From the NCBI GenBank assembly GCA_002633005.1, contig NMRA01000797.1, positions 14,293 through 78,292 of the forward strand: a stretch of 64,000 nucleotides of DNA. The letters are read 5' to 3'. The position numbers and the translations under genes are program-made. The notes under the pieces are model-generated. The model did no database searches, was not told the DNA's origin, and worked only from the letters and a program-made list of their open reading frames with translations. This DNA comes from Phoronis australis. Taxonomy: Eukaryota; Animalia; Phoronida. This document shows, in pieces, positions 3,820 to 58,443 of the stretch (position 1 is its first letter; each line of letters begins with the position of its first letter).

Positions 3820-4235
3820 GAATTAAGCTACCAATAGGCCTCCAAGCCACCATCATCTATCTTACCGTGGCCTCGGTTACGTCGCTGCCAGTGGAGGAAG
3901 CTTTCAACGGATTCTTGGACTACGCACAGGCATTTAAAGATAGAGGTAGCGAACAGCTGTTGCATAACTCAGACTCAAACATGTTCAAAAAGTTAGACGA
4001 TGCCACGGTGAGAGCTGGAAAGTTATTCAAAATCTATTCTAATTTAGCGTTGACCCGGGAACTTGTGAAAGCTTTGAACGGTCGAAACCGGCCAGTAAAT
4101 GTTCGCACGCCATTGAAACGGATATTTCCAAATCTGTTCAAACAGGCGATCGCCGATGAATACAGAATGCCGAAGACGGCCGACGTTTCCAAAGAAGGGA
4201 GTCGATCTGGAGGCACCGTACTTCGCTACGGATAA
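3820..4235 (+). CDS. Putative neuropeptide precursor (RYamide prepropeptide), paralog 1, terminal coding exon
   Basis: Acceptor ttttttcag|GA at 3819/3820; the ORF is also open from ATG 3783. Hydrophobic signal-like segment ending VASVTS|LP, KR at 4116-4121, then 36-aa IFPNLFKQAIADEYRMPKTADVSKEGSRSGGTVLRY + G + TAA. Near-ungapped similarity to the paralog at 58049-58443. Confidence 0.72.
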
Positions 4236-5924
4236 AAATAATTGATGCGGACATGTATACATGACGGCGACATCCCGTTGCTTCCAACTTGTTCGATTCT
4301 ATAGCCCAACAACAAGTTGGGAAGTGTACCCCCGTAGCCAATATCTTACACGACTGATTAACTCCATTCTGGCATTTATAATTGGAGCCCCATGTTATCG
4401 CATGTTCAGCACCCGTCACGTCTGGAAAAGTTTAATACTGAACAACAGAACGCTGTAACGAACTAACGCTTGCTTATATTACCACTGATAGAGAAACAGT
4501 CCTCCAAACATAGAGAAGAACTACACAAACAGTTTGCCAAAGAAATGATCGTCGTCAAACTAAATACAAATGTTCTCATCGGGTGATCGCGGACTTTAAA
4601 CGCAGTGAAAACACTTGCATCTATATTCTGTTGCCCAAATGTTGCTCAAAAAAGATGTTGCAAAGGTTCGAAGACGCGTTATTGAACAAAACCTCTGATG
4701 ATATACATGTCAGCGAGTTCGCGTATTTTAGCCAACGTAGTCTCTTCAAGGCACTGACCATTGTTCCAACTGATACAGTCTCTACTGCTGGACTTACATA
4801 TACTTGAGAATTGAAAGCAACGTTTTGTCAACAACCGGACACTTGGAATGCGTTCCATGATAGGCCACGTTTCTTGCGAAAAAGTGAGATCACGCAAGAC
4901 CATGTCACTTCTCTGTCATCTACTGCATTCTTTGTTCAAATTCCACACAGGTCTTACAGCAGAAAACATCATCGGAACAGCTCTATCACTAGGGCCGTCC
5001 CGGATAACACAGCGAGATCCAAGTCTCGCTGTATTTACCCTCAATGCCGCAATACTTGTCAAGCATTTTTATAGCCTCGTTTTCGCATGTTGTTCGTTCT
5101 TGTCGTATTCTTGACAAGTTTTTCACGGCTGCACTACTCTATCCATCTTGACAAATACCCCTGGATACGTGATGTTAGTTCGGTTTCCGACATGCCCTGT
5201 TAAAATTTGTGGGGACGTCTTGTATAAAAAGCATGGATCATACATGTACTGTACATCTAAGCTGTCGATTGTCGTTGGTTTATTGAACACACGAGAGTGT
5301 CATTGGTTGGCAGCTTTCATACATACAGTACTCCTTCGAACTTTGCAAGTGGTACATTTGTCGACCAAGGCTCCAAAAAGACCTCTGTAGCAGATAACAA
5401 GATAATACATGTACATGTATTTATAACACGACAATTACATTTTGAGGCCAGGACTTTCATCTTCACGCAGAAAAATGATATAGGGTTAACAGCAGCAGGT
5501 AACAAAGGGGTTGATGTCACTTTATTTTTGACTGAAGATGAGACATACAACGACATCGGAACATAGTCTTCATTTTGCATAGGGTCGTTCTGTCGGTTGG
5601 TAATCTGCTGTATAGTTGTTCTTTGGAGAACTGGTAACTAAAGAATACCAAGAGTTCGAAATAGTACGCATGAAAGCAGTCAAGCGACAACACTGCCATA
5701 TAATTCTCATTACATTAATATAAATATTTATATCACTGATAAAATTAAGCTTTGTCTGACTGGGGCGATAATTTGATAATCGATAAAAACAAAAAAATGT
5801 CTTAACTGCAGAAAATACAATGTTTAACTAGATTCCGTTACATTTAAGTGGTTTCATTTGCATCTAGACGAAAAGCAAAAATAACAAACCGTTGGTATCA
5901 GGAATTTTGTTTAAAGTGTTAGAG

Positions 5925-6220
5925 AGTGAAATGTACATTTACAATATGTTAATAAAAACAACGATGGATTTAAACCGGCTTGACATGTTTCGGCTTTTAT
6001 TAAAACACCATCATCAGAAGAAAAAAAAAACAGTGGCCACGTTGCTAGGCCCAACAAGACGGCCACAGTCAGTCACTGTACAGAGGAGTACAATAGATTA
6101 GACCAACAATGACAACCTGTGGTGTGCCAGTTGCCTATTTGACTGGACTTGCACCTATTGATGTGAAGAGCCTCAAGAATTTTCAGCTTTGTTGTTTCTT
6201 CATGTCAAGCCAGTTTAAAT
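5925..6220 (-). mobile_element. Penelope-like retroelement 3' fragment (family A)
   Basis: Reverse complement matches 15150-15490. Contains a decayed GIY-YIG C-terminal motif (LKILEALHINRCKS...) and a hammerhead motif. Confidence 0.65.
5979..6020 (-). ncRNA. Minimal type I hammerhead ribozyme motif (Penelope-associated)
   Basis: Minus strand reads CUU-CUGAUGA-U-GGUGUUUUAAUAAAAGCC-GAAA-CAUG-UC-AAG: intact core, pairable stem II, palindromic ACAUGU stem III, GUC cleavage triplet and CUU/AAG stem I. Confidence 0.65.
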
Positions 6221-6593
6221 CAGTCGTTGTTCTTATTATTAAGATATGCTGGTACTTGCTACCATGGAGAAACATTTACAATAAACAGTTAAATATGGCT
6301 ACACAGCTAAATACTTATAAAACGAAGTAGTTTGTTTGATTTGATCTTTTCTGATGAACTTAATTTAGGCGTGATTCTTGTTTCTTTACACATGTTTTCA
6401 GAACGCTTCATCGTGTAGGCTGAAACAATTAATTGTGAATGTTGCTTAGTCTGAAATTGAGGATTACAATAAAGATCTGAGGCCCGGTTTCTCAAACGTC
6501 TTAAGTCCGGCTTTTTGTTCAGACGGTCATAACTCCCGTTTTAATTTGCACTCTGTTCATTAACAAGGCGCGTGAAGGCGGCCGCTAAAGTTA

Positions 6594-8037
6594 TGTAGGA
6601 CCCGTAAAACGGTGCGGATTTGTCAAACTTTGGAACAGGCATATCTTGCAAATGGCTGATTGGATGAATGTGAAAGTTTTTATTTGCTACGCGTCATGCA
6701 CTGTTCACCAAAAATGTTTCGTGACGTGTTGCTTAAATTCACCCGCGTTTGCATGGAGGGTTATGCACTTTGGGATTTTTATTAGGATTTTATGAAAAAA
6801 TGAAGAGTTGCACAATACGAAAACGAAATGAAAGCTTACAAAGTGTAACAGATCTCATCCTCAACACTTACAGCGAGCAAAATTTGTTTACAATGTTATC
6901 GAAAACTTTGCTTAGTTGGGACTTTACCTTTCTTTATGCAAAATTTAATTAAAAATACAAGGTCACGCGACCCAATCAGCGGCAGCGGAGACTAGCATAA
7001 ATCTCAAAATCCCTAAACTTTCTTCTTTCAGGAAATATACTTTTCGTGAGTTGAAATTTTCCGATATGTAAAATTGATTAAACACACGACACTTTTCGTT
7101 ATTAACAGTCTTTATTCCGTTTTGTTCATATGTTCTACACTCATCGGAAGATTGATGAAGTAACTGACCAAGAGACATGATTAAAAGGCACACGATATTT
7201 CGAAACATACTTGTTTCATTCTCAAGTGGAAATAAAATGACGCAGTAATTAATGCCACCACAGAGCATAAGCGGGAGACATGCACATTTTTTAGAGATTT
7301 GTCGGAATGCACAGACACTTCGATAAGGTCATACATACAACTGAAAGTCTGAGTATAAATCATTATCAACTTAGTCAGTTGCAATGTTTTCCTAATTTCC
7401 GGTCACACATCGGGCGATGTTTGGTCGATCCCGTCAAGTCTCGACGCCTGTCACGGTCGGGCGATTTTTATAGGATGTGGTAGCAGCAGTGAACCTACGT
7501 TGAGGTCAAAGAAAGTTTCCAGGCTAGTGAGCATCGCCCCCTCCCCCTGCCCCCCAATGTACTGGTGAAGACATAACGCGAAACCAATGCTCGGACGAGA
7601 AGGCACACAATCAAGGACTAGGCAGAGCATCGGCCCAGCCATCGTCGGCTGATGACAAAGACAACTCCCGATGATCTAGTGCCGACGCACGTCTGCGGGT
7701 AAGTCCTGATGATGCACCGATTAGGGATTACGACGCCGACGCTCCCAAAAATGTCCCAGCCGTGACGTTCGGCCGCCGATATGACCAATTTTCTACCGCA
7801 AATGACTTGTCGCGTGGAAAGCTTTATGTGTGACCGCGGCATAAAACATGCTCGTCTATGCCAACGACCATTGAAAACACGGGCCCCTGAAAATAGTATA
7901 AGAAAAGGATTAAAATTGCTTTCTTCATGCAGCAACCATTGCTTCCGGTAAGCTAAAATTTCAACCGCGCACGTGAGTACGGTGAATACTGACGTCAGCT
8001 CTAAAGCCTGGCTTATTGTACGTCTTACGGTCCTACG
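6594..8037. mobile_element. Degenerate TIR DNA transposon remnant
   Basis: Imperfect IR TGTAGGACCCGTAAAACG (6594-6611) / CGTCTTACGGTCCTACG (8021-8037). Confidence 0.4.
7396..7841. mobile_element. PIF/Harbinger-like GC-rich MITE
   Basis: IR core CGGTCACACAT (7400-7410) / ATGTGTGACCG (7826-7836), flanked by TAA at 7393-7395 and 7842-7844 (TWA-type TSD). Confidence 0.55.
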
Positions 8038-10816: not shown

Positions 10817-11048
10817 TACGCGTGCACTCGGGAGGGTGGGGGCTCAAACGAGCCCCCCGTTTGGCGAAGTGGGCAAAAAGGTCCGCCTCAGAGACGCAAA
10901 AAGTCCGAAAAAAATAGAAAAAGAGACAAATGTCCACTAAAAAGGCAGGAATTCGGCTATGCACAGTTTATAGCTCTGAACATACACCGTTTTGGTTTAG
11001 TAAAAGAACCACATTCTTAAAACTTCGAGCCCCCTGGGTGCGCTCATG
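10817..11048. mobile_element. Possible hAT-like MITE
   Basis: Imperfect termini TACGCGTGCACTCGGGAGGG / CCCCCTGGGTGCGCTCATG with internal GAGCCCCC motifs. No clean 8-bp TSD. Confidence 0.3.
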
Positions 11049-19729: not shown

Positions 19730-19743
19730 GCGCCCCCTCGTGG
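19730..19743 (-). promoter_or_regulatory. Candidate CTCF-binding motif
   Basis: Minus strand CCACGAGGGGGCGC closely matches the bilaterian CTCF core consensus. Motif match only. Confidence 0.35.
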
Positions 19744-24640: not shown

Positions 24641-24674
24641 CCCCGGCACGATTGAAAATGGATGAAAACGCTTC

Positions 24675-25676: not shown

Positions 25677-26629
25677 AGGCCCCGATTCATACTAACATCG
25701 ATGTGTCATGTTTTAGGGAGTTGCGGTTAACTTCAAATTTAGCAGTGCCAGTTAACTTTGCAGTGTCAGGTGGACTTAACAGCGGAGCGTTGACGCCACT
25801 GGTGCAGTATGAATAGTTAACTTCTGTCCCATCGAAGTTATCACCAAACAGGGCCACTGTTGTCGTCAACTATTAAACAGCACTGTCGTCGCTAATAGAT
25901 GCTTATATCTTGCTCAAATAGATAAAGGTTGAGTCTTAAATACCAGGAATAAAAACTTACAAAAAGTTAGCAATGTTGCGTCCGCATCTCACGGACTTCA
26001 GCTTGGCTTGTGACGTTATCGTTATTCTGGCCAATTGGTGGCGTTTTGACCAGACGGTGCACATTGACGTCAGAACACCATTGTGAGACAAATTGAATCT
26101 TAAACCCCCTCAGTCTTTTATTTAAAGAGGGACTCTCAATGCACTCATGATTTGATTTGTCACACGTATGGGATGGTGGTCTGACGTCAATGCCGCGCCA
26201 TCTCGTCAAAACGCCACCAATCGGCCAGAGTAACGATAACATCACAAGCCAAGATGATGTCCGTGATATGCGGACGTAACGTCACTAATTTTTGTAAGTT
26301 TTTATTCCAGTATTAGACTCAAACTTTATCTGTTTTCTCAACTGGATGTCTCAAAAATTTTCATGCTTTTGCTTGAATAATCACCAATCGAAACACAAAA
26401 AAGTTCTATGGCAACTGGCACATGTAAATGCATGTTCCTAAATTGTCATACAGTAAAAAATCTCATCATGCATTAGTGATATTTTGCGATTACTTGACGA
26501 TGACAGCATCACCTACTGTTTACTTTGATGTCCGTTAACTACCGAAGTCGGTACAAACGGTTCAGGTAAATTCCCAGTTTACATTCAACACTCTACTCAG
26601 ACTGGAATTAAGTCAGTGTGAAAGGGTCT
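25677..26629. mobile_element. PIF/Harbinger-like element interrupted by a Penelope fragment
   Basis: Termini TAA|AGGCCCGATTCATACTAAC ... GTCAGTGTGAAAGGGTCT|TAG. Related copies at 50730-50859, ~51650-52107 and ~54170-54510 lack the insert. Confidence 0.6.
25919..26354. mobile_element. Penelope-like family B, inverted pair of 3' ends
   Basis: 25919-26090 and 26155-26335 are inverted copies. Minus strand encodes HECIESPSLNKRLRG. Matches 57189-57952 and 32060-32790. Confidence 0.75.
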
Positions 26630-27337: not shown

Positions 27338-27350
27338 CACAAAGCGAGTG

Positions 27351-30490: not shown

Positions 30491-32059
30491 CGAAAGTTTT
30501 GAAAACGCAGCTCTTTCTTTACGCAGATACGTTTTCTGCCCACGCGTACATGTATGACGTACGCCCGTGGGCATCGACTCGCTGAAAATGCCCTCAAAAG
30601 TGGACTTTTTTAAAAGACCGTGTTGACCGTATTCGTCAGTGTAGAAAAGCGAAATGAACAAATTTGTACACATTGCTCAAAAAACTTTGTGGACATACGG
30701 AAACGCCAACGTCTCTGTCTTACAACGCTGCGTGTGCTTGGCATTTCAGACAAAGCGCTCATACGTCTGAAATTTTTTTAAGATTGAACACCGAGACACA
30801 TATTGAAACCGTAATTGCCGCCATTTCCAAGTCGCGATCGTTTGCGGGGACATTGCGCGCAAACAGCGGGACCAAACAGTGTCGCAGTACGATATTGTAG
30901 GTGATATTGTAATAGGATTGATATCATAATCTGGAAATCTTGCATGTAAAATAAAAATGTTTTCCACCACAAAATTTGGTAAGTTGGTCGTTTACCAAAT
31001 GAATAGAAACATTGCTGTTTTCTGACGTTTTATTACATATGTATGCCATGGATCAGATCGCATGTTACGACTATGTACAAGATGACCAAAATCTTGGCTC
31101 GCATTTTCAAAATTTAGGTCGCCAATGCGACCTGCAGCTCATTATGTCTAGCGCCGAGTCCCGTTTGCAACAACACCGACTCAGTAAGGACGCTTTGCTC
31201 GTTACAACTCGCCACTAATTTCATCGCATAACATTTTTTAACCATTGGTGCCGTTTACCCGAATAATGTGGACTTCGTCTTCGAATTAATTTTACAGACA
31301 CAGGTAGGCTAGGTGTATGAACTACGTCTTTCCCAGACTCTACTGTACGGGTTCATTAGACTCATCCCATTCACAGTGTTAGTATTTTTTAAAATTAAAA
31401 TCTTAAGTACTTATTTTTGAGTAATGCCTTTGTGGTAACTTTTGATTGACAACTGGCTTATGTCTGCGTACCTGTGCCGGGTGGTCAAAATAAAACAGCC
31501 GCAGAACCTCATTACGTTGAAAATGTCATTGAATCAGGGAGTCTTGAACATAAACATCCCAAACACAAAAACACCTGAATTAGTTTTCCAAACCTTAATT
31601 ACAAACAATTTAAAACTGCTCTCTAACACGTGATTCTGCTGTGACCTATGCAGCACGTGAAGGTTGCACGCGCGCACTTTGCACTGTCAAGTCAGTGAGG
31701 ATAGTTGCAATCCAAGGGGAACGCTGCTTAGTCACTGGTCGTCTGCGCTCTACAGGTACAGCTCTAAGAAGACCGCAGGACAGCACAGGCTATTAGTCAG
31801 CAATTTTGTAAATTTAACTGAAATGATTAATCTGAGGGCAACAGAACTTTTTCTGGGATCATCCGCTATTATAACATTTTTACCGTCATTTGGCGATGTG
31901 GCAATAAAGCTCGGAAAAGTGCTGCTAAATTTCGGAACAGTTCTTCTAGCATAGATAAAATTTGAGTCTCATACTGGAATTTGAAATAAAACTGATTAGA
32001 GTTAGCGAAGTTACATACATCTCTCATGGATTTCAGCTTAGCTAGTGATAACTAATAGG

Positions 32060-32790
32060 TAGCCTTTTAACCAGATGGCACGGCATTGAGGTCAGTACTC
32101 TAACCCATAAGTGTGACGGATGGAACCTTAATCCACCTCGTTTATTAAGAGAGGGACTCTCGATTCGTCCATGGAATGCTTCCTTGACATCCCTTCTGAA
32201 CCAGTCTTCCGCACGGTCTATGATAGTGACATCATCCCAATTGAAATCATGTCCAGTGGCGCATAATGTGGCTAAAATAGCCGAGTCATAAGTGTCCCCT
32301 TAACTAGAGCGACGATGTTGTGACATGCATTTTAATGCACCTAATAGCTGTCTGAGCACTGGGGATTCTTGCACTGAAAACCATAGACAAGACATGATTT
32401 ATTACCCTTGGGGGTCTTGTCCTTGACATTAACGAGTTGGCTGCAGAGAGAATTAAACCGTTTGTGGATGATAGAAATGTCAAACTGTTTAAATATCCTA
32501 TTGAAGTGGTCAGAAAGTCCCTGAACGAAGGGAATCAACACACGAGTAGGGGGATTCATAGTGGTGGTTGTCTGAGTGTTGACTTTTCTCTTCTCTGAAC
32601 TTCCCCCTATGGTGAACGACCAAAGTGGATAACCGCATTTGCCACCTTTTATCCAGAATAATAATGATATTACTAGCCAAGGTGAAATCTGTGACAGACG
32701 GACGCAATGTCACTAATTCTAGTAAGTTTTATTTCAAATTCCAGTATTAGATCCATATTTCATTTGTTTTCTCAACTGGACTCTTCAAAA
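32060..32790 (-). mobile_element. Penelope-like family B fragment (linker + GIY-YIG remnant) with inverted 3' end
   Basis: Minus strand encodes IPFVQGLSDHFNRIFK...HKRFNSLCSQLVNVKDKTP...VYGFQC...C...Y and HDFNWDDVTIIDRAEDWFRRDVKEA...SPSLNKRGG. A plus-strand pLTR copy lies at ~32640-32790. Confidence 0.8.
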
Positions 32791-34976
32791 TCTTTGTTTT
32801 TAGTTCTTCTAACTGACTTTCGCAGAGAGAGAGGCGGGTGTCATATCAAAATATATCAAATCTGCCTAACATTGAGAAAGCAACATTGTCATCTCAATAC
32901 CAACATTCATGAAATTTCATAAATTTCTATGACGGAACTTGGTAGACACAAAGAAAAACGTAAAGGGGCAATTCCATTTGTGATGGACATAGGAAAATAA
33001 CTAATACATCACTTGATAGGTCTCACTGACAGCTTTCAAAGCATTATCAACTTTTCCCCTGTTTTAATCTTACTATGAAAATCGCCTTTAAAGGGGTGTG
33101 ACGGATGTACGCAGAGAATTTGAATTTTTTGAAAAAAAATTTTTAACGTTAATTTTCTGTGAGTTGCATTAAGTTACATTTTTGTTTTGTATAATGATAT
33201 AGTGGAATGTTTGCAAAGTACAACACACTAATTTTTTTGATGATATCTTTCAAGAAATTTTTGTCAGACAGCTCAATAAAAGCTTAGTTATTGTGACGGA
33301 CGTACGTGATAGACGTACGGTCTGAATTTCTAGTATTAAATTGTTTGTTGTTACTAAGATATCAACTTAGAATGATTCAACCTTTTGCAGCACTTAAAGT
33401 CCTTCTCTCAAACTGCCCATGTGGTTCCAGTATCCGAAAATACTTACTACATAAAATCTTATTTTCGACACCCTATATTCTTTTCGCCTTTCTTGCCAAA
33501 AGTGATTTTTTTAACTGTTACAGTATATGACCCTTCTCTGTTAGCGTATAAGTACCGGCTGTCATCAGTTATTTCCGTACCCACATTTCGGGCTCATCAG
33601 TTCAGGAACTTGTCCTGAACGTCGTCATTTTTTCCTTGTAACTGAATGTGCTATGGCTTGCTCGAAAAGTCTTCATTATTTTGTTTTATTAGTAATATCT
33701 CGTGATTCGTTTGCATATGTAGTGTATTTATAGTTCGTAGTTAGTGGTTCTTGATTTTTTTTGGAATGTTACGCGTACTTAGTATGTTAAAATAGCATTG
33801 GTGTTTAGTTCCTTACGTAGGCCGGTCGAACCTAGGAACCAAATATGAGTCGAACCAATTTTTTCGGTTTTATTTTGTTTCTCGTTTTGAAAAAGTACTT
33901 TGCTATCATCGGAAAGGTAGTGCATTCTACTCAGTAAAAATCGAAAAAGTATCAAAATCCGGGCAAGCAGTGTAAAGTTATTGCAAGTTTTGTGGCGGAA
34001 TTTGGGTCACTTTGTTTGGATCGCGTCGGCCATATTGGAGGACAGCGGGATACGTTACGAGTTTAAAACTTTGTGTAAATTGTTTTCGCCAATACGGTGA
34101 AATTTAGTTAGACATATCTTTACTTACTATTCTGCACGATTTAACAGTGTTCACCAAATTTCAGCCTCACAGTTGTTACTCATTAAGTGATAAATTTTCT
34201 CACAATTCCCGTTGGGACTTCGTCTCATTTCTGGCGGCACCAACAACATGGCGACTTTTGCTGAACTGAAAGGCATGTTCAATCGGCTACTTTGTAATTT
34301 GTGAAGATTTAACGTTGATATATTTTGACAAACGTTGCTAAAAAAGAAACTTTGTTCAATTTTCGTGTTTTTTGTGCAAAAATATAACATGTATTCGAAT
34401 TATTTTACTGTAAATTTCCCATTCAGGTGATCTTACACTAAGCTAAAAAAATAGTTGAAATAATTTTGAAATGGTTTTTTGTTTGACTGTCAACTGCTGT
34501 TCAAGACTTGATTCGGTGTCACAAAATGATTCATATTTTTCTAAATTTTAAGCCTCAATTGCTTTCAAGTCATGTTTTGTAACTTACTGCTTCTTAATTC
34601 AGGTTATCAACTCAACAATATGAATAATCTCAATTTGAGAAATAAGCTATGTTGGATTGTGAAGCTTCAAGCCTCTAATTCTTGTTCCTTGCAACTTCAT
34701 ATTTTTTTAAATGATGCTTGTCAAATTCTGGAGTAAGAAAACACTATTCCGTCATCATGGTAATACAGTGCTGATCGAATCCAATGTCCTATCGAACGAA
34801 CTTCAGCCTCAGTCAGGCCTCGGGTGACCTTCAACCGGAGTGAGGTCAGGCTTCGCCCGGACGCGTTCTGAACTCGGTTGGGATGTGACTCACCCTAAGA
34901 CTGGCCTAGGTTGGACTCGGTTGGACTGCGGTTATTGAGTCATTAAATGTCCGGGGGGTTACCCCTGCATATGCTN

Positions 34977-43714: not shown

Positions 43715-43970
43715 TTTGACCAATCATCATGCAGTCCTGCATTGACCAATCACATCCCAGCAGCCCACTTGCTCAATCAGATGAACAACACAGGCAAGTC
43801 GTATGTGGGATGTACCCAGTACATAAGACACTCATTATGACAACTAGGGTAGAATGCTGGTAACTCAAGCTTCACACAAGATGGCAGTCCTCTGCGTCAT
43901 GTAGTAGAAATAGAATATTGAGCAGTAATCAAGAAAATACTCTCAGTGATGACAACACTCACAGGTAAGT
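43715..43970 (+). promoter_or_regulatory. Candidate promoter and short first coding exon (possibly of RYamide paralog 2)
   Basis: Two TGACCAATCA CCAAT boxes (~43717, ~43743), TGCGTCA CRE-like site (43893-43899), and ATG ACA ACA CTC ACA G|GTAAGT (43949-43970), a phase-1 donor compatible with the phase-1 acceptor at 58049. Confidence 0.3.
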
Positions 43971-46900
43971 CACCTTTTGATTGAAAGGTTCATTGACTAA
44001 ATGATGAAATTAGTTAAAAACTGTTAAAAATTCTTCAGCTTAGGGCACAAAAGGATGAGAGATAATTTTTCCATTTTACGAATGTTTTTTACAAAAATGA
44101 CATTTCGGGTAATTCTACTTGCCTGGTTTGTATGTTACAGTTGTAAACAAATGCAGTTGGTAAAATTTCAGGTACTACGAATATTCTCACATTTAGCACC
44201 CACATTTGATTTAGTGCAATTAACAACTGATATCAACTTATTCTCGACTAACGTGATGAACCATTTCTGGGCCATAGAAGAACAGACACTTCCAATTTAG
44301 TGCGGCCTGATCCTCTGCTCGGCAAATAAAATCATGCAACATGAAAAGATAACCCAATCACAAGCAACAAGCTCTCTGTTTTTCCCGAACTCAGGAATAA
44401 TATTTGTTTTTGAAAGTTAATTACATCTGCTTTTAAGTTACAGTTCAGTTAATTTCGTACGCCACTAATATTCTTATACATTCCACGACTGTTCCAGCAA
44501 TATCAGGAAATCACTGCAAAAAGAGAGCGTTACATAAATTGTAAATGCACATTACTTTAAATTACTATTCTTTTTTATGTTTCTCCCGTGTAAGTAGTAA
44601 TTATTACACATCTTTTTAGTCTTTGATCTATTCTCTCTAACTGGTTGGAAGAGCAATTATAAAATTCTTGGTCATGCAAAGCACAGCTAGTTTAAAGTTA
44701 TGCAGGACTATAACGGAAAGTCTGCACACTAAGCAAAGGATCTAGATAACCAGGTGACATATTTAAAAAAACATTGTTACAGTATTCCAAAATATTGTTA
44801 CGTTTTACCCAACTTAAGAGATTTTTTTATGAAAATCATAAGTCTCACTTTTGATAGCCAGTCATGCAAAAGTGGAACATTTTAAAAACAATTCCAAACA
44901 GCTTTTTTCAGAACAGTGCATAAAGCATAATACTTCCGAAAAGTTTCATATAAATCCGATAGCCATTTCTGAGATATGATGTTCCGAAGTTAGCCAAATT
45001 CGGAATTTTTACAAGATCCTGTCGTGACCCTTGGTTCCGCGTAAATTAAGATAATAAGCGGGATATTCCACTAAGCCGGATATTTCATTTAGCATTTCGA
45101 CTTGGGACTTGGCAGTAATCGTAACAACTAGCTCAAAGGGAAACAGGAAACATTCAGTTTCACCTCCGGCACAAAGATCTAGTAATTAAGAGCAATTGAA
45201 TTTAAGATAAATGTGGATTCTATTATAGTGGAAACAATTCATTTGTAACACAACAAATACAGAAACCAAAGTTCTTGTCACTCTTTTAATTCAAGAAGAA
45301 TTAAACATTTAAAGACATCCAAATGTGAAATGAAACTGTTCAATGAAACAGATTTTTATATGGCAATCCAGTTAAATCATATATTACCCTATCATACTTG
45401 ATTCCGTTACACACCCACACAGTGGGATGGGTGTCCAGATTTCACTGAACTAGTTGGGATACAGAAGTTTCCTTATCAGTTTGACAGTGATAGCAAGGGG
45501 AGACAGTTGGCAAACCAGTGTTTACATATTCCAGCTCTCTGGTTGTTTGCATTTATCTGATGAGCTCAAGTAGGTACCATAATCCAGCAATTATGTGGTA
45601 AACAGAGAGCCTGATGCTAACCAATATTTAAAAATACTATTTCCAAACCACGTTGAATGAATTTGTGACAGAGACGTGCTTTGTATGGAATACTATCGCC
45701 AAAAAACTTTGAATGTAGAAAAATGGTCGAGTTTCAGAGAAATTAGACTTAACTTTCACCTGCTGATTCTTTTTTGGGACCTGAGGTAGAAATTAGTAAG
45801 CTCTGACCCACTTAACTACCACAGCATTGTGTACCAACAAAATAGGCTTGTTCCTCAAGTTTAATGGAATGTGACACTAGATCAAACCCTGATGTTGGAA
45901 ATGTCTTGGTCTTAACAGTCCAGGGGAATGGTATGTAATGCATTATTTTGCATATAGCTATTACAATTATGGTTTGTACATCAAATATGGAGAAAAAGAA
46001 ACATCTATGATTTCAACCCAAAAGAACTGTATAAAACAAAAAGTGTCAATAAGCTTTACTCCGTGACTTGATCTTTTGAGACCAACGCAAAATTATATTA
46101 ATAAAACCACTAGCCAGTTGCCATAGAGTGAAACACGATGGCGCAAGACAATGGTCATATTACATAAACAATGATAAAAAAATCAACTTCAATGTCAAAT
46201 AACAACAATTTAAATCTCTCTGGAAGTCAAGGGATACCCTCAAAACTGATGTAAGCCTGGTTTTGGTAAAAAAAGTTTTGATTCAGGCAACAAAGTTACT
46301 TTTTAATGCTTACTATGACATTGTCAGTACAATAAACATACAGACCCAGTAACTGTCAAGAGGCTTGTATCTGGGCTAACAGCTTAAAATAACAAATAAC
46401 AAAACAGGTCTTGGCTCTTGTTCCTTACTCCTGTTTTATGTGATTTATGGATGTAAACAGAACAGACAGGTTTTATTTGCTCCAAACTGAGGCTCAACAA
46501 GTTGGCTTAACCATTTCATATGAAGTAGAATCTCCAGTCATTAATGCAGAACTGGCATCCCTTAGAAAACACTTTCCACTTGAGTGAACAATAGAATAGT
46601 TTTATAGCAGCAAGAGATCTAAATCAAAAAATGTTTGAGCCATATATGACATTAATGAGGGATAGAGAACAACATTTTCACATTGGTACAAGCTCACTTT
46701 TCAACTTACTATTTGATGATGTTGAGAGCGAAACTACTAGCAGCAATCTTCAACCCCCTACGTCCCCTAAGTGAATATCTGTACTCCGCGAAAATGGCTA
46801 TAATCGTGAACTAAAGTACTTACATTTTCATAAATAATGATTGCTTACCTTATACCAAATGCAAGTAACTCATTAAAACTGCGTTGTGAGACAATTGCAT

Positions 46901-49567
46901 TCGGAGATTCAATCAACTGGGTAAAATGACAAGTTTCATTAGACAGTTCTGCATAATACATCCAAAAATTAAGTATTTGCAGCTCAGCAGAAGTGATAAG
47001 TCTGATAATTAAAGCAATAACAGAATACAATAGGGACACAATAAGGCTCATGAAATTTGCCATCATGTTATTGGGTTGATAATCAATCTCATGTATTGCT
47101 TCTAGCTTGTGATGTAACAACTGTCCAAATCATTTCTAAAGAGTCTGCTATCATAAATTACACACCTTCCCATTATGACTCAGTATACATAACTTTAAAC
47201 TAATTGTGACTCTTTGTGCTGACAATATGGTATCATTCTATTGTGTTTGCATTGCTTTATAAAACATTTCGAAAGCTGAGACAATAATCCATAGGTATAG
47301 TTCTGCTACCTGTTAGGAACAAGTGACATATTGTCAGACTTTGATGCTGGCTGTGGTGACTATGGGATTATTCCCAGGTTGCCAAACACAATCTGAAGTC
47401 ACCTTGGCAAGCTGCAGGTTACCAAACTGAGCTGTGATGTCCATCCAAGTAACCAGCTTTCATTGTAGTAAGAAGTCTTACTTAAACAACACCAGCAGCA
47501 ATTAGCAATGCTTGATTGAGTTTCCAATAATAAAGTGAAATGTTTGGGCCAGGAGTGAACAAGTAAAGTAATGGAAATGATCCTATCTCATATGTAAGGC
47601 AAATCATCTGAAAGTACAGCAGTTGAGAATTATTCATTTTCATTAATTAAGCCACAACAGAGCTGAATTTGGCTGAAAATATTAGATTTCATATTCAAGG
47701 CAATTCAAAATAAATTTCCTAGGAAGCCCGGAAGTAGTTTTCAAAGACAACTTTGACATAGAAGTGTTGATGATCCACCTCGTGACAAAAGAGCCATTTT
47801 GTTTCTAATAGAACTAATTTCAATTCTTGCTAAATCGTAATAATTTACTTAGGATGTCCATTCTAGAATAAACAATTAGTGGCTCGACACAATAACCACA
47901 CATTAAACTCTTGATTAAATGCTTGGCTATTTCATTGCGACAAAGGTTCGGTTCAACTGAACTCGTCTGCCAAATATTTCTGGCAAGAATTCCTCCATAT
48001 TTGACACAGTTGAGTCGATGTCGGTCTAGGTTATTTTGAAAAATACAATGTGCATCTCCTTCAATCATCAACATTGAAACATACCTTCATTGCAATAATT
48101 TGGGATAGTCAATTATTGTGAAGAATGCGTGGAAAAGAAGAGATGATGATAATTTTATAACTCAGGTATGTTCCACAACAGTTGTGACCGAAGAATATTT
48201 CAACAAATTTCTCAAAAAACTTGCTGGACAAAACTTCAAGTAAAACCAGCACAGGTGGGTATTACTTTCATTTCCGACTGGGTTAATTATGTATCTTATA
48301 CCCACCTTAAAATGCTCATGTGACATACCTTAAGAGAAAGAATTCAGTTGGTTAAAAATAAGGGGCTTTCAAACTGAAAAAAAAACCCGCAAATCTAAGC
48401 TCATATATGTACAAGACAAAAGCACCACCGTTTCCTCATTACAACAGCTAATTTTGTTAACATCAAAAATGACTGGTAAGAACCATCAAAGTGGCAAAAT
48501 TCTAATAACGAAAGGCTTCGACACCTTAATAATTTTCCTGGTTCCCCCTTTAATCTCGGTCATGACCGAAGGTTACTCTTACAGTGAATTCTACATCCAC
48601 CGAGCCGTCACGATGTGAAATTCCTGTGAGGTCATTTTGTTTCAACCCTTTTGGATATACCGTACATCGTTTCATAAAACGCTTGCAAAATTAATAACAA
48701 AATGTTCTGTTTCAAGTTTTAAGAGTGAAACTAACTCATTTATTACCAGAATTGTTTTAGTTTGAGTGAAAGTGAGCAGACATCAAAAGCCTCACCTGTA
48801 TGATGGAGGAATAATACATTTGAAAACTTAACATCAATTGAATAGAAATGTAAGAATTGCATGAAATATCCCATTACCAGTGCACACAAACGTGTTGAAT
48901 GCGTGATTGGAACAAAAACACATTTAATAGCCCATTACCAATGTTTCACACAGTGAATTTAGGTCAGAAGTTAAAGTTTGAAGAAAATAATAGTCAGCTC
49001 AAATTAAAACCATTAAAGCATTAAACAAACGGCAAAACATTCCAAAAGTCAACAATTGTAAAATTCACACAGCAATACAACAAGCATGGACTACTGTGAG
49101 CATCTTTAGTTATCAGTCACGTGCGCTGGAGGCAGGATTGGGGGGACTATTACTTTCTATATTATTCATTCACAAACGTACGCACCACCTGACGTGTGAC
49201 GTTTTGCAACAAAATTTGTGTGCCATTCAGTTATTCACTTTTCACATACCCAGAGAAACTGGGATGTCTTCATTCTACCCATATTATAATAGCCTTCTAA
49301 TGTCCATGCAGCAACCTTATGATTGTATACTCTTGACATCTAGGACACTAGAACAGTATTTCAAATTTCGCTAATTTTGGAAGAAATTCTACATGTAGGA
49401 TACAGCTGATGGAATTCAAGAGAAACTCACTGTCAAAAATGCAGTAGGAATATGAAAACAAAATGGTGAGAAATTCTAAACCCCATAAAACTCAGTTCCG
49501 GAAAAGGGCATGACTAATTAATTAAATTACGGGAAACTGTAGTCAGTAACCGAAAAATATGTCTGGG

Positions 49568-50036
49568 CAGGCTTTCATGCAGAGTATGTCCTGGCACTAA
49601 TATGGACGCCCTGGCAAGGATGCCCAATGTATCATTTGAATGCCCACTATCAATAGGAACCTTTCAAGTTTGGACACACACATTGTAATGATTACTAGGA
49701 AGCCTAGTATGAAGACTCACAGTGGTGGCTCTTTTTTCAAAGCAGGAAAAAATATATGGCAATGTATATACAAAGTATATACAATGTTGCTACACTTGGT
49801 TGGTTGATTGTAAAGTCTTGGTCTACACAGTTTTTTCAGCAATAATGCTCACTACAGAAGGATGTTTTTTAAACTTAGATGTAAAAACCGTGGTCTATGC
49901 ATTTTCTTGTAAAAAATCTGTGTGTTTGGGGGAGGGTTGCAGGGGATGGGGGTTACACATCGGAATCACGGACGCCCTGGAATATTGGGAACCCCATTTT
50001 GGACACCCTATTTTCGAAATCCTGGATAAAGGCCTG
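49568..50036 (+). mobile_element. hAT-superfamily MITE, copy 2
   Basis: TIR CAGGCTTTCATGCAG / CTGGATAAAGGCCTG with perfect 8-bp TSD TGTCTGGG (49560-49567 and 50037-50044). Inverted homolog of 38590-39061. Confidence 0.9.
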
Positions 50037-50729
50037 TGTCTGGGATAATCAACCAACCATATTTTTACTAAAAATGACATGAAAAAGGTTGCTTTCTGAT
50101 TTAACATTATGCTCATTTCAGCATTGATTCAAACTTTTTTAAATTTCATGGAAAAACTCATAAGTTGCACAAAACAAGAACCAAAGGGTTGTTCAGAAAA
50201 GATGACCATATCAGAATTTTCAATATTTCTTCTTGAACATCTAAATGAAACAATCATTTTTTGCAAAATTTTAGTAAAAAGACATGGTAACGTCATTGAT
50301 AAATGACGGATTGATATCAAGTCAAAAATCAAATTCTATAGAGTTTCTACTTACAGAAATTAGGCTTCTCCGACAACTTAATTCTAGTTTAATTGTAGAT
50401 ATTTTCCTAAATGCACAAATTTGTCGAAAAATCCCATATAGCTTTACTCATAAACTGTTTTTCGTTTAGTAAAAAGGAAAGATCATTCCACGTAATGACA
50501 AACATTCAACGTAAGTTGCAAGTAAAACAAACACTTTTATCTATCAAACATTCACTTGAAAGATTCTGACAATAATTTATCTCCACATGCCTAAAATGAC
50601 TTTGCAAAAAAACAAAGCACCTAAAGAAACTAATAGCAGAATGATACTGCCTTAAAGATTTTGTAATCGTTCAAGTACCTTTACTAATACAACTGAAGAA
50701 TGCAAAAGATCTATAAAATATGCAACTTA

Positions 50730-50859
50730 AGGGCCTTTCATACTAACGTCAATGCGTCGATGGTTTGGGGAGTTGCGGTCAGTATGAACGGTCCAGCTAA
50801 CTGCGCTGTTTACATCGACGCTCCCCTCAGACCTGAGTTTAGTCAATATGAAAGGGCCT
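50730..50859. mobile_element. 130-bp PIF/Harbinger-like MITE
   Basis: TTA|AGGGCCTTTCATACTAAC ... GTCAATATGAAAGGGCCT|TTA; internally deleted relative of 25677-26629. Confidence 0.75.
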
Positions 50860-51649
50860 TTAAAGCATAACCAATTACTATGAGAAATCTTCTGAAGTGG
50901 GCCTCTTTGAAGAACTGAAGGGCGTTATGTAAGATTGGAAATCAAGCTTAAGTGACTAATCAAAGTCATGACCTATGGGAAAATTCAAGGCAAAATAACT
51001 CATTAAGCTAATTAGTTGTTGTGTAGACATTGGCAAAATTTTTAGCCACTTAGGCTATGCAAAGAGGGAATGGAACATACTTTGTAAAAACGAGTTTTGA
51101 TAATTTAAAAAGAATTTTATTTGCTTCCCACTCACAGCCTCAACGTAACCATGTAATTGACTCCGGCAATCTGGCAATTCTTTACACTGTGAATACTTAG
51201 CAAACATAAATAATGGGTTCTAACAACATTTACTTTGAAAATTAGAAAAAAGAAGCCAGACATGAAAACAATGACGTGCAATTTGAGCTATACTTGGATT
51301 TTTACCCAGGGACTCTAATGCTTGCTTTTCAATGCATTGTAATAATAAACACAAGTGTCCACCTCCACAATCACCATTAAATCCCAGTTCACATTGTTTC
51401 CTATAAATTCATAGTACTTAAAAATTAGCAATTTATCATTTCTTTTTCCTATTTCATTAAAACCAGGGCCATGGCCCCAAGAGTGTAATTGGTAACAAGT
51501 TGACTCAATAACGACTGATTCAGTAAAAGATTTTCGATGCGTAATTTCTAATCTCTAGCTAATTGGTTACAGTCATAGTTTTTGGGAGCTGATCTGACTC
51601 TGGAGTTGACAGCATTTTTCATTCTTGTGTTCTCATGAGGAACTAGGGT

Positions 51650-52107
51650 CAGGCGGAAATTCATCATTCTAGATCGAAGTTAACAGCTCCAGTTCACTTC
51701 GCAGGTAAACAGGTGGATTTAACAACGCAGCGTTGTTGTTGCAGTGCATTATGAACGGTCAATTCCGGTTTCAACGAAGTTACTGCCCGAGGCCACTGTT
51801 ATCCTCAAGAATTAAAGGACAAAGTTGTCGCTAATGGTTTCTTAGGTTTTACTAAAATAATCACCAATCGAATTAGAAATAACTTTGATATCAAATAGCA
51901 CACTTGTTCTAAAATTGTCACATCAAAAAAAAATTGTGCATGGGTCATCAACACATAACTTTATGGGATTACTGGGATGATGACTAGGTCACCTACTGTT
52001 TACTTCAATGCCCTTAACTACAGAAGCTGGTACCAACAATTCAATTAACTTTGTAGTTTACATTGATGCTAAGCTCATCCTAGAGTTAAGTTAGTGTGAA
52101 GGGACCT
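51650..52107 (+). mobile_element. PIF/Harbinger-like element copy
   Basis: Shares CAGGTGGATTTAACA...ATCACCAATCGAA...TCACCTACTGTTTAC...AGTGTGAAGGGACCT with 25677-26629. Confidence 0.6.
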
Positions 52108-52384
52108 GCAGAACAAAAGGAACTGGTTTCCTTGAGGGAACACAATAGTTCAGTGGTGCAGCATCACCAGCATGCCTCATGTAATTATTGTCCAATTATG
52201 TCCTAAACTATGTGGTTGTCCACTGCCAAGAAAAAACCTCACTATATAAAACAGTCCTCTACATAGCCTGCCCTAGAACACCTTAATGCACGAATGCAAC
52301 TTAACCCACTTTTAAAAGGAGCGTCCACACAAACACCTATCTGATACCTAGGGTAAGACAGAAGTTGCCGCTCCGTGCATGAAA

Positions 52385-52489
52385 ATGAACACCTAATGCG
52401 AATAATTGGGCCGCAAAAGAAGACCAGTGTGCATGACAATGAACACCTGATGCGAATAATTGGGCCGCAAAAGAAGACCAGTGTGTATG
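52385..52489. repeat. 54-bp tandem duplication
   Basis: ATGAACACCT.ATGCGAATAATTGGGCCGCAAAAGAAGACCAGTGTG.ATG starting at 52385 and 52439. Confidence 0.85.
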
Positions 52490-54169
52490 TAACCGGAGCT
52501 GATAATTACTTCCACCTTGCACCAAGTTAGCGGCCACACACGAATAAGAAGTAACGTAACAAGTTACCCTACCTCAACAAGGTGGAGTAAGCTGTCACAA
52601 GTGGGAAATGTTGCATTAGTTTAAATAGCGTCCATACAGCCATTAAACCTAGCGACAACTCGTGGCAGGAGTAACTTGTTCTAGAGTAAGTCTGTGTGTG
52701 GATGGCACTTGGGAAATGTTGTACTTTATGCAACTAAATCACTTGAGAAAATTAAGTATTCTTATGGATTTCAAAGGTTATGGCGCTGTTACTCAAACCG
52801 AATTCCCATTAGGCATACAGCAGCTCTGAATGTTCCCTCAGTCCTTTCATTGACCGAGCCGCCATAATATTGCAATGACGACATGTACATATGATAGAAA
52901 GATGCCGGGAGAACAAAAACAGAGCATAACTTTGATCCTGAGAGAGTTATGTGTCTGCATGAATATGACTTTTTAGAATGAATGCTATGAGTTGCCTAAT
53001 GCAACTGTGTTCACAAACACAGCAAGTTGTGAAAAGAGAAAAAGTGGAAAACATCAAGTCTTCAAAATCTGGCGGGTTGTAGCTTAATTATTTGGTGAAA
53101 ACTTGTTTTTGGGATTGTCTAAGCCATGTTCATCATTTCAACATTCACTCCCAATGTCATTACCCAATTCGTTGTGCATATTCGACTACTTAATTTAATT
53201 ATCACTACAATATTTAAATTGTGTAATTAATTTGATGTGCCTCGAGTCAAATTAGGAGACTGTCAGCAGAAGTGAGTACCGTGTTCATTGTTATACATGC
53301 CACGCCAAGGGAAAATTCGAGTGACAGCAGTGTAACCTTTGAACTTTGATAAGTATACAAATTTCCACATTGCGAAGGTGGGTTGGGAAGTTGTTTATTT
53401 CCTACCATAAACAGGTAAGATGTTGATTTTAAAGCAAACTAAAAATGAAGATAAAATATTCATCCACACACGCCAGTCAGGTGTTGCAAAAACTTACAAA
53501 TTTAGAACTGGTTCCTCCATGCCCTTAACAGTGCTGCAACATTAACTGGCAGTCTGACTGTACAGGGGGAATTGAAACTTTCACTTCTGTTACACATTCA
53601 ACTGGGTGTTGGTACAAAATTGCCCCAGAGTGTTCATAGCACTATTGTCTCATACCTGTATAGCATAGAGCCCGTAACTCATGAAACATCAACTGCTAGT
53701 GCAAACTACTCGCAACACAACCGATATTGTTGAAATTTGAAAAGCATGTGTGCAGATATTTGATTTATTTCCTACACAGGTCAGTGCTTAGCGGAAAGAA
53801 TGCTCCCGGCTGAGAATTGAAAAAATTTGTTTTTGTAAAGATCCTTTGCAGCAGAAACCAATTAATCCAAATTTTTTCTTGTGCTCTGGGGAGACATGGG
53901 GCTTTCACTGAATTTTGTTTGTTTTGGGGTGTTGATAGTGGTACACACTTTTCAAAGCCTATGCTGCCTTATTGTCAGATTTCCATAATGTATCTTCAAT
54001 TAAAACTTGCGTTGAGCTGCTCCTTTTTAATCTAGAAAAAGGATTCAACATTAAAAAATATGCAGTAAAAAACACCAAATTCAATAGTCAGTAGCAAGGG
54101 TGGTTACAGAATTTTGGTCTGGCTATCAAGTAAAAATCATGTATTACTCCCACTTTGATTGCTCTATAG

Positions 54170-54511
54170 CTCATAGCACCAAAGTTAACATTGACAGTTA
54201 ACTTTGCAGTAAACACTCAGGTGGATTTAACAGCAGAGCATCGATGCTGCCATGCGGTATGAACCGTCAACTTCGGTCCCATCGAAGTTATCCCCATCGA
54301 CCAGTGTTACCATCATCAACTAAAGGGCAGTGTCGTCGCAAGTTGTTGCTTATATTTGAACAATCACCAATCGAATTAGAAATAAGTTTTTTGTCAATTA
54401 GCACACGTGTATGTTCTCAAATTGTCGCATTAAAAAATCTTAGCGTGCATGTGATGCAACAGCGCTATCTTGCGATAACTTCGATGACAACATCATCACC
54501 TACTGTTTACA
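54170..54511 (+). mobile_element. PIF/Harbinger-like element internal fragment
   Basis: Matches the internal portion of 25740-25910 plus 26370-26525. Confidence 0.6.
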
Positions 54512-57188
54512 TATAGTGCAGTTGTCCAACCTTACCCACTAGAGGTCACTGCAAATTCAAAGTAATCTTAATTTTACACAATTTCATAATCAAAGGGGTT
54601 ACTTTTGATGTTCAGAAGTGAAGGAGACAACGCCAAAAATTGACGACGTAAGTTTTTTTTACTTCATCTTGGCACCCAAATATCAATTGTCCTTTATGAT
54701 TCATTTTTAACTTGAACAATAGTCTAATATGACTGAATATTCGCCTTTCTTAGAATGTTTATAATGTGTTATATAGTATGATTTTGTGGGCTGCCATTTT
54801 TAAATCAATCAATCAATCAATGAAAGAGTTTGTTACTTAAGAGCGTTTCATTAGGTTTTCTTAGCGGAACATATCTAACATGTGGTGACAAAAACATTAC
54901 TGAATACAGCGTTTACCGCTGAGCCTGCAGCTAAAATAAAGGCAACTTAGTTGCGCTGTGCAGTGCTATTTTGGATAATCATAGATAGGTAATTTTTGTG
55001 TTACTTTAAATACGAGAAATCCGATGTATTCTTTTGTGCAACTTCTAAGTTCAGGGCTTGGAATGACCCATGACAAAAAAGAGGAAATTTTTACGGTCCT
55101 AAATACACATTTCAATCTAAACCATACCTCAACAGATCGAAAGTAAACATTATTATCACAAGACGCCCTGTAACTGTGTTGTGTTGGCAAAACGCACTCA
55201 TCGTAAGCAGTACCTGACATCTATTTCAGCAACAACAATGAAGGCAATTAGATGCAACAAAAGATATTTTATAAATTTAAATTAAAATAATAAAGATAAT
55301 GATGCAAAATTTGCAGTGTGAGTGGCAGCAGCTTATTCTTGATTTGCTGCAGGGAGACCTAAAAAATTATTTTCAATTCTTATAATTACGATACAAAATT
55401 ATAAAAAAAAATTGAAAATCGATCCATGGATTATCTAGAAAGCCTGAAATACATTACACATTTAATTCCAACAAAAGAATTTAATTGCAATGCAAATGGA
55501 AAAAAGTCAAGACGAAAACCTGTGGCTCATACCCCCAACTGTTAGCATGGAAAAATGAAAGTCAAAATTTTAACTATATAGAATGCATCAATCACAATCC
55601 TAAGTTGGCCAAACTTTTCAGTTTCAAACAGTAGTTACAGGAGTTAATTGTTCATAAGACACGCTGGTGTAGAAGAAACTATGTGACAAAAAATAACTAC
55701 AAGGACACAGAAAATAGGCGGGCAGAATTTGTAAACAATGGCTTAGACCAATCAGATCATTCAGAATCTGTCGCGTGATCACTTCCCTCGAACTGCAAAA
55801 CCCGAGTCACAAAATAGAACACCAAAAACGTGAAAATAAATTGAATTACATAAAAGGCAATTTAGAACACATTTGCAGTAACGAAAATAGCACTCTGTAT
55901 CCCGTTTCGGCGGCACGTAAAAAGTCGCACTCAGACAGTCAGGCCTAGCACTAGCCTCCAAGGGCAACGGGCGTGCATGTGGGATCAAACAAAAGAATTT
56001 CATACATCACTCACATCCTATGATTCCAATCCAACGAATAGCCCGTTATGGTTGAATTTCCTTTCAGGAAGCTTTGTTATTTCTAGTGTTCCATCATTTT
56101 CAGTCAGTTATTCGACTCCACTTAGTCCAAGACGGCTCGACCACGCACTCCGTAATTGTTCAGCTCTCGAAGTTTACAGAGCACAAACCTTGGTTTGTGA
56201 AGACATTGACCATTTCTTTTATCCACTTTTTCAACGACATATTCGGTCTACTCCACGCTCCACACATTTTCACAGCAGAAATGCACTATTTGTCACTGCG
56301 ATTTTATACCAAATGCAGACGCCATTGATGAACCACGCTATGCCAGGTACAGGCACTTGAATTTATCTGTTCCTTGATTACCACTGACGTCACTCTCTAC
56401 TAAGAGAACATGTTTCTTATATATGGTTACGAGTCATCGGGAAATTCGAGCGCCTGTGATCCGCAATTACAATTTTCAGTCGGCAACGCTGCGGTGAGAA
56501 ACCAATTTGCCGCAATAACTTTATGGCAAATTTAATTTTTTCCGCAAAAAGATAACGAAAATACGCGGAGGGAATAAAAGAAAAAACCGGAAATCCGCAT
56601 TTCCGTAGAAAATTCCAAGCCTTGTAAGTTGACCCCAACAGTATATTTAACTGGATGCACCAGAAATAAAATCTGAAACATTAAACCAAACCCATCAGAG
56701 CGTCCAATCAAAACAAGCCATGGAGAACAATGAGTGATAGCCTAATTTTATAATCAAATGTTGTTTTCGAATCCTATAGTCCGATGTAAAAATGCTCTTG
56801 TTGACCATATAGCCGCTGTGCAATTCGCGAGTGTCTCTGTGTGCGGGACACGAAATCGCAGAGGAGTATAACTACAAACCTCTTAGACGAACAACAGGTT
56901 GCACTGCTTTAGGTCACATTGAAAAGAACATGTCAAGAAAATGTGTCGGCGGATATTTTCGATGATTTTATGACCAATCAAATCATTTTTAGACTCTGTT
57001 TGTACAAAACTCATCATCCAAGATTTGTGTAAGATGGTCAATGCCAAAAGCACCTACAATCTTCAGTCATGAAAATTCAATTTCTGTTTGAATGTCACTG
57101 ACTCATATTTTAGAGACAGTCCCAAACTGGAGAATGTTAACTGTTAAAAGAATGTCAACGGAATGTTAATGATAAAAGCATGAAATAA

Positions 57189-57952
57189 TTGAGACATCCA
57201 GTTGAGAAAACAGATAAAGTTTGAATCTAATACTAGAACACAAACTTACAAAAATTAACGACGTTGCGTCACGTTCTTCAGCTTGGCTTGTGACGTAATC
57301 GTTATTCTGGCCAATTGGGTGGCATTCTGACCAGATGGCACGGCATTGATGTCAGAACTTCTCCCACACGTGTGACAAATCGAATCTTAAACCGCCTCTT
57401 TTATTTAAAAAGGGACTCTCAATGCACTCATGGAGAACTTCTGAACCAGTCTTCCTCACAGTCTAGGATAGTGACATCACCAGAATTGAAATCATGTCCA
57501 GTGGTGCACAGGGGGCTAAAAATAGCCGAATCATAAGTGTCCCCGTAACTAGAACGACGATGTTGTGTCATACGTATTTTTATGGACTGACAGTTACATA
57601 CAAATTAGGTGAAACGAAACAGTCCATAAAAATGCGTGTCACAACATTGCTGGGGACACTTGATGATGTCACTATCCTAGACTTTGAGGAAGACTGGTTC
57701 AGAAGGGGTGTAAAGGAAGCTCTCCATGAGCGCATTGAGAGTCCCTCTTTAAATAAAAGAGGCGGTTTAAGATACGATTTGTGACACATATGGGATAGAG
57801 TTCTGACATCAATGCAGTGCCGTCGGGTCAAAACACCACCAATTGGCCAGAATAACGATAACGTCACAAGCCAAGCTGAAGTCCCTGAGATGCAGACGCA
57901 ACATCGCTAATTTTTGTAAGTTGTTATTCCAATATTAGACTCAAACTTTATC
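57189..57952. mobile_element. Penelope-like family B, inverted pair with GIY-YIG remnant
   Basis: Plus strand encodes DDVTILDFEEDWFRRGVKEALHERIESPSLNKRGGLRYDL (57661-57784). 57189-57580 is an inverted homologous copy. Confidence 0.8.
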
Positions 57953-58062
57953 GGAATGATAATGATTTCGATGTGCTTAGACAGCCAACCTTCAATTGTC
58001 AAAGAGAACTCAAAATACAAGAAATTGATATGTCTTTTGTATTTTCAGGACGGATACTATCG

Positions 58063-58443
58063 ATGGGGATTCAAGGCGTAATTTTCTGCCTAGCTGTGGC
58101 TTCTGTTACATCCCTGCCGCTGCAACAATCAATCGAAGAACTCTCAGATTATATACACGCCACTGAAGGCCAAGACAGTGAACGTTTACAGTACAGCATC
58201 GATTCAGACATTCTCCGAGAGTTGATCGAATTCAGGACAAGAGCTGAAAAACTGAACCAACTAAACGCAGCTTTATATCGGGCACGTGAACTTTTAAAAG
58301 AAATCAACAAGTATACTGAGCGTGACAGGCCATCAAATTTTCTTATAAAATACGAACGCAGGTCGTTACCAAACGGTTTTAAGACTTTGTCAAGTAACGG
58401 TGGCACACGCTCGTACGGTGCAAAAGTGCATCGATACGGGTGA
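58063..58443 (+). CDS. Putative neuropeptide precursor (RYamide prepropeptide), paralog 2
   Basis: Acceptor attttcag|GA at 58048/58049 and ATG 58063. Signal peptide MGIQGVIFCLAVASVTS|LP, RR at 58357-58362, then 25-aa SLPNGFKTLSSNGGTRSYGAKVHRY + G + TGA. Paralog of 3820-4235. Confidence 0.78.
   Translation: MGIQGVIFCLAVASVTSLPLQQSIEELSDYIHATEGQDSERLQYSIDSDILRELIEFRTRAEKLNQLNAALYRARELLKEINKYTERDRPSNFLIKYERRSLPNGFKTLSSNGGTRSYGAKVHRYG

Follow-up and report, generated by a model that had tools for sequence, protein, structure and literature searches.

Two paralogous genes for predicted RY-amide precursors

The stretch of DNA analyzed here (64,000 nucleotides of contig NMRA01000797.1 from Phoronis australis; hereafter the window) carries, on its plus strand, two transcribed paralogous genes, A and B, arranged in tandem. 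Both probably encode precursors of neuropeptides or peptide hormones, each of which would release a single peptide ending in arginine-tyrosine-amide (RY-amide) and acting on an RFamide/RYamide-type G protein-coupled receptor (GPCR). An earlier note, made from the letters alone, had described two plus-strand exons ∼54 kb apart with an identically placed phase-1 acceptor; indeed, a TTTCAG acceptor lies upstream of each exon, and both exons open with GA. The C-terminal layout described there is also present in both frames: a dibasic site (KR at 4116 in A, RR at 58357 in B) precedes the predicted mature region, which ends in RYG followed by the stop codon (TAA at 4233–4235 and TGA at 58441–58443, respectively). 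The predicted peptides between dibasic site and glycine are 36 and 25 residues long, as the note had stated (Table 1).

That A and B are paralogs, another proposal of the note, was borne out by several comparisons. Within the window, tblastn aligned the two exons with 35.7% identity (E = 3.8e−17), the next-best match having an E value of 0.89, and the local alignment score was 163, compared with 27.6 ± 4.8 (maximum 55) in 1,000 shuffles. Of 125 residues aligned by MAFFT, 50 were identical, and the first 87 columns, which contain the motifs listed in the note, were free of gaps (nearly ungapped alignment over ∼85 residues had been claimed). Identity was 11/21 in the predicted signal peptide, 26/79 in the pro-region, and 13/25 in the peptide plus glycine; the chance of a given frame ending in RYG is ∼1.4e−4. 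The duplication is an old one, as the flanking DNA could not be aligned (scores of 19 and 22) and the coding DNA only barely (26). Since the first exon of gene B sits between them, A and B are separate tandem genes; no third paralog was detected in the window, neither by tblastn nor by a further window search.

A and B are under net purifying selection, which had been suspected from the intact frames. The Nei–Gojobori method (125 codon pairs; pN 0.38, pS 0.72) gave a dN of 0.53 and a dS of 2.46, and consequently a dN/dS of ∼0.2, which is rough because dS is near saturation. Identity at the three codon positions was 57, 64, and 41%, third positions being the least conserved. The dibasic site and the C-terminal glycine are kept in both paralogs and in all listed within-species variants; the 11 coding variants listed for gene B all leave RR, the invariant residues of P-N-x-F-K, the 13 C-terminal residues of the peptide, the glycine, and the stop codon unchanged.

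Table 1. Features of genes A and B (positions within the window; UTR, untranslated region).
Feature	Position	Strand	Description
Gene A last coding exon	3820..4235	+	Most of predicted signal peptide, 79-aa pro-region, KR, 36-aa peptide, Gly, stop
Predicted mature peptide A	4122..4229	+	36 aa, VLRY-amide end, predicted monoisotopic mass 4043.1; predicted processing
Gene A probable 3′ UTR	4236..5791 at least	+	AATAAA at 5951; strand-biased reads and X5 contigs
Gene B first exon, 3′ part	43932..43964	+	5′ UTR, start codon at 43949 (ATG), then five codons and one base; donor CAG|GTAAGT
Gene B intron	43965..58048	+	14,084 nt, GT-AG, phase 1, after codon 5, within predicted signal peptide
Gene B second coding exon	58049..58443	+	Remaining predicted signal peptide, 83-aa pro-region, RR, 25-aa peptide, Gly, stop
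Predicted mature peptide B	58363..58437	+	25 aa, VHRY-amide end, predicted monoisotopic mass 2695.4; predicted processing
Gene B 3′ UTR	58444..58634	+	AATAAA at 58619; read coverage stops in bin 58590–58634

Transcription and exon structure

Transcription was assessed with three raw RNA runs from one study (X7, X8, and X9) and with a contig set (X5) that was guessed to derive from RNA. For gene B, 18, 21, and 42 reads of the three runs were placed on its stretch. The depth over its exon was entirely first-mate-minus and dropped to zero in the first upstream bin and beyond 58634; first-mate-minus reads are expected for plus-strand RNA in most stranded libraries. A 656-nt contig of X5 covered 58046–58626 without gaps. 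At the acceptor of the second exon, loose ends were found for 5 reads of X8, 13 reads of X9, and one X5 contig (none was listed from X7), and the loose 5′ end matched 43932–43964 exactly, which did not occur once in 100 shuffles. Independently of the reads, a donor scan of 4236–58048 left the donor at 43964 as the sole candidate for gene B. Spliced in this way, the coding sequence is complete over two exons and encodes a precursor of 136 aa in total.

For gene A, bin 3601–4000 contained first-mate-minus reads only (3.59, 1.67, and 0.71 versus 0, 0, and 0), and bin 3201–3600, upstream of the exon, was empty of reads. An X5 contig on 3813–4113 begins at about the acceptor, with 42 unmatched letters at its 5′ end; a joint between exons 1 and 2 was absent among the read joints shown. 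Strand-biased reads in 4401–5600 and X5 contigs on 5378–5591 and 5568–5791 point to a long 3′ UTR, no single piece spanning it. Within this probable UTR lies a high-copy repeat (∼4273–4387), to which reads from many other loci map on both strands. A fitting donor was not present in 1–3819, and the first exon of gene A probably lies upstream of the window. Both genes are transcribed, and gene B is spliced.

In-frame intronic ATGs occur at 3783 and 58030, just upstream of the acceptors, from which ab initio callers could call single-exon forms; for gene B, the reads back the spliced form over the single-exon form starting at 58030. Upstream of the ATG of gene B lie two putative CCAAT boxes (43720 and 43746) and a TGCGTCA resembling a cAMP response element (43893). 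A 44-codon frame in the intron of gene B (55921–56055, plus strand) also ends in RYG-stop, but is unlike the paralogs and probably due to chance.

Predicted processing of the precursors

A script-based analysis revealed a hydrophobic N-terminal core in both precursors (11-residue Kyte–Doolittle maximum of 2.6 for B and 1.94 for A), followed by sites with small residues at −3 and −1. The predicted signal peptide would accordingly be cut near residues 23–27. PC1/PC2 would then cleave at the C-terminal dibasic site (KR in A, RR in B), and PAM would use the final glycine to yield a 36-residue (A) and a 25-residue (B) RY-amide; a carboxypeptidase step would not be needed because the glycine is terminal. 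Cleavage by prohormone convertases at dibasic sites and amidation by PAM at glycine are established prohormone biology. The AlphaFold model of the precursor, in which the pro-region is drawn as helical, is of low confidence (pLDDT 51.6). Neither predicted peptide contains Trp or Cys (hydrophobic fraction of 0.39 and 0.28), the net charge is +4 for peptide B and +2 for peptide A, and the pro-region of A is basic. Among the look-alikes listed from the ESM Atlas, peptide hormone precursors, one of them a kisspeptin-2 cluster at 0.87, accounted for 8 of the 10 rows of A and for all 3 rows of B; all values were below 0.9, and these look-alikes were treated as leads only. As for the target, which is less firmly indicated than the processing, an RFamide/RYamide-type GPCR is the most likely one; RF/RY-amide receptors make up one supergroup of GPCRs (PMC8557429).

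Several observations weigh against A and B being such precursors. Gene B is covered by few reads (the counts given above), the runs all come from a single study, and the RNA origin of X5 is itself a guess. The start codon of gene A was not found in the scan of 1–3819, and no ortholog of A or B was retrieved in protein, Pfam, or metagenome searches. Recognition values were low (1749 and 1894 versus 2300), and the top Atlas row for A was a non-neuropeptide, Frey/C11orf94. The saturation of dS, which makes the dN/dS rough, also belongs here. Within the species, gene B appears loosely constrained: the X5 contig differed from it at 20 positions in all (15 listed), and 7 of the 11 listed coding variants were nonsynonymous (pN/pS ∼0.54), including three in the first half of peptide B (positions 5, 8, and 12), seen in the X5 contig only.

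Searches for homologs and described peptides

Neither A nor B had a confirmed homolog in the databases searched. In a set of 5.8 billion proteins, restricted to near lengths, 0 of 25 candidates for P0002 reached E ≤ 10, and 0 of 139 candidates of a two-sequence A/B profile were confirmed. The sole HMMER match in 1.84 billion representatives (P0003) was rejected, being a 6954-aa repeat protein for which 16 weak repeats were summed (best, 6.8 bits). A Pfam scan of A and B gave nothing over the cut-off. In metagenomes, 0 of 317 matches of a pattern scan were confirmed; a degenerate motif scan gave 61 loci, of which none was matched by tblastn at E 0.05 and three were in frame but unrelated. Five exact motifs of A and B were found in no paper by full-text literature search, although sequences printed in figures and subscription journals could hold a description, and the motifs had no precursor match in the supplements of PMC8557429, PMC9793003, PMC5996578, PMC6425005, PMC6586643, PMC5627052, and PMC6188537. 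Neuropeptide precursors evolve fast, and their genes often are unannotated; a blank search is, therefore, not proof of novelty. The scallop genome annotation, for example, is reported to have missed 14 neuropeptide precursor genes (PMC5996578). In the databases and papers covered, no described neuropeptide family matched A and B, which are likely new peptide hormones, as the note had suggested.

Relationship to known peptide families

The note had compared the layout of A and B with that of QRFP/26RFa. This holds insofar as the QRFP/26RFa precursors of vertebrates and amphioxus also carry one C-terminal amidated peptide of ∼25 residues, a length shared by B but not by A (36). It does not hold for the sequence: QRFP is described as a 25-residue RFamide with conserved L4, A8, K18, and G20 (PMC4062910), of which B has 0/4 and A, over its C-terminal 25 residues, 1/4 (G20). 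The closest layout, overlooked in the note, is instead that of the lophotrochozoan NKY precursors, which share the RY-amide end with A and B.

Other families are more distant. The kisspeptin genes of vertebrates and the echinoderm KPP1 gene are reported to have two coding exons, a phase-1 intron, and the peptide in the last exon (PMC9400282), but their intron follows the signal peptide, whereas that of gene B interrupts the predicted signal peptide, following codon 5; moreover, echinoderm kisspeptins end in LPF-amide (PMC5627052 supplement), unlike A and B. Peptides of the NPY/NPF, PrRP, and luqin/RYamide types resemble A and B in their RY- or RF-amide end, and the ophiuroid “NPF/Y 1” ends in LRY-amide like A (PMC5627052 supplement). 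However, NPY/NPF-, PrRP-, and luqin-type peptides directly follow the signal peptide, whereas pro-regions of 79 and 83 residues intervene in A and B. The two-Cys C-terminal domain reported for luqin precursors (PMC4772807) is also absent.

Descent of A and B from NKY, making them divergent members of the family that comprises NKY-1, NKY-2, and the scallop LRYamide, is possible, though less than an even chance, and presupposes a lophotrochozoan host. NKY precursors have the same order of parts (one long C-terminal RY-amide that comes after a signal peptide, predicted in A and B, a long pro-region, and a dibasic site), are similar in precursor size and peptide length, often occur as two paralogs, and carry a stretch rich in Gly, Ser, and Asn before x-x-R-Y-G, to which 6/10 residues in A and 5/10 in B correspond. 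A single long C-terminal peptide with an RY-amide end, a feature of NKY, is predicted for both A and B. Judged by eye, 21 of the 23 NKY precursors given in the PMC8557429 supplement (part 19) end in RYG plus 0–3 basic residues after such a stretch; one NKY-2 precursor there also ends directly in RYG-stop. The scallop LRYamide precursor likewise carries a long C-terminal RYamide (PMC5996578 supplement), and the central regions of NKY-1 and NKY-2 are already strongly divergent according to PMC6425005. Against this descent stand the missing consensus motifs FW[RQ]P[LM]G[YG] (NKY-1) and G[YF]WIWMPAQG (NKY-2), as given in PMC6425005. An N-terminal Trp motif was discerned by eye in 22 of 23 NKY precursors (PMC8557429 supplement); peptides A and B contain no Trp and have x-x-P-N-x-F-K in its place. 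Searches with A/B hidden Markov models retrieved no NKY protein, nor was there a precursor match in the three supplements cited above that cover NKY and LRYamide (PMC8557429, PMC6425005, and PMC5996578), and peptide B, at 25 residues, is shorter than the quoted NKY peptides (up to 43; PMC8557429). Thus, by its layout NKY is closest, but membership fails on the tryptophan motifs. It is improbable that the QRFP-type receptors outside chordates have their missing ligands in A and B. QRFP precursors do yield one C-terminal peptide, the length of B is exactly 25 residues, position 20 within the C-terminal 25 residues of A is a Gly, and ligand-less QRFP-type receptors are reported from echinoderms, hemichordates, and lophotrochozoans (PMC4062910; PMC8557429). 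Yet A and B end in RY rather than RF, lack an FxF motif as well as L4, A8, and K18, and had no QRFP sequence match in Pfam or by HMMER in the 1.84 billion representatives. Similarly improbable is the wider proposal of an undescribed bilaterian RYamide family serving an orphan receptor group, in its boldest form the non-chordate QRFP-type receptors, such that NKY-type and chordate QRFP-type precursors would belong to one ancient system.

The remaining alternatives concern the nature of the products. It is unlikely that the active forms are short, sNPF-like peptides of 8 and 9 residues, released by cleavage at the lone Arg within the common G-[S/T]-R-S. The R-S pair is aligned across both paralogs, the variants of peptide B lie only upstream of this Arg, and the end of A matches 5/6 residues of the annelid sNPF GTLLRYamide (10.1101/712687). 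However, sNPF precursors are multi-copy (PMC8557429 supplement). The conservation of P-N-x-F-K right after the dibasic site suggests that the long forms matter. Monobasic cleavage usually follows a rule by which a basic residue is located at −4, −6, or −8 of the Arg, and none is present there. Very unlikely, too, are secreted non-neural effectors (host-defense peptides, pheromones, or gland secretions) made by the same processing machinery: tandem duplication, amino acid polymorphism in peptide B, and its net charge of +4 would fit, but the low hydrophobicity, the lack of Cys and Trp, the charge of only +2 in A, its basic rather than acidic pro-region, the conserved RY-amide end, and the low read depth in X7–X9 would not. 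The absence of both sequences from every protein database searched might speak for an artefact, a pseudogene pair, or a single gene with two alternative last exons. This is hardly credible, as both genes are transcribed, neither frame is broken although dS is near saturation, and a separate first exon of gene B lies between the two; for gene B, the splice junction rules this reading out. Two genes for predicted RY-amide precursors are the preferred reading.

Surrounding DNA

The window has a GC content of 38% and a CpG observed/expected ratio of 0.76; both values would suit an invertebrate animal, as would the long introns and transposon-like fragments. Of 189 stop-free frames of at least 66 aa, 146 were scanned for other genes and none exceeded the Pfam cut-off; Rfam and tRNA scans of the window gave no matches. 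Related elements form inverted pairs at 57213–57952, 25916–26370, and 31954–32794, one pair lying ∼100 nt upstream of the second exon of gene B. Frames at 57467–57781 (plus strand) and 32344–32709 (minus strand) are similar to the GIY-YIG end of Penelope-like retroelements (no Pfam match); a homolog search with a transposon-like fragment gave nothing. Dispersed inverted repeat pairs (12421–13296/62889–63745 and 38590–39018/49590–50036) with 80–84% identity are probably transposon remnants. Three palindromes, TACATGTA, TGACGTCA, and TAGGCCTA, occur more often across the window than expected.

Implications

Orphan, lineage-specific precursors are common, which tempers the weight of the finding; for crinoids alone, 20 orphan predicted precursors are reported (PMC9793003). 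If lineage-specific, A and B would join the many precursors of this kind and matter mainly to specialists in the animal concerned, whereas the case for a QRFP-type ligand would be most interesting in an echinoderm or a hemichordate. As of 2014, the QRFP-type receptors outside chordates were without a known peptide (PMC4062910), and the NKY peptides may not yet have an identified physiological receptor (PMC8557429, 2021; 10.1101/712687). A and B bear on both of these ligand–receptor gaps, and they provide two defined peptides, predicted long C-terminal RYamides, for synthesis and for screening against the orphan GPCRs of the host.

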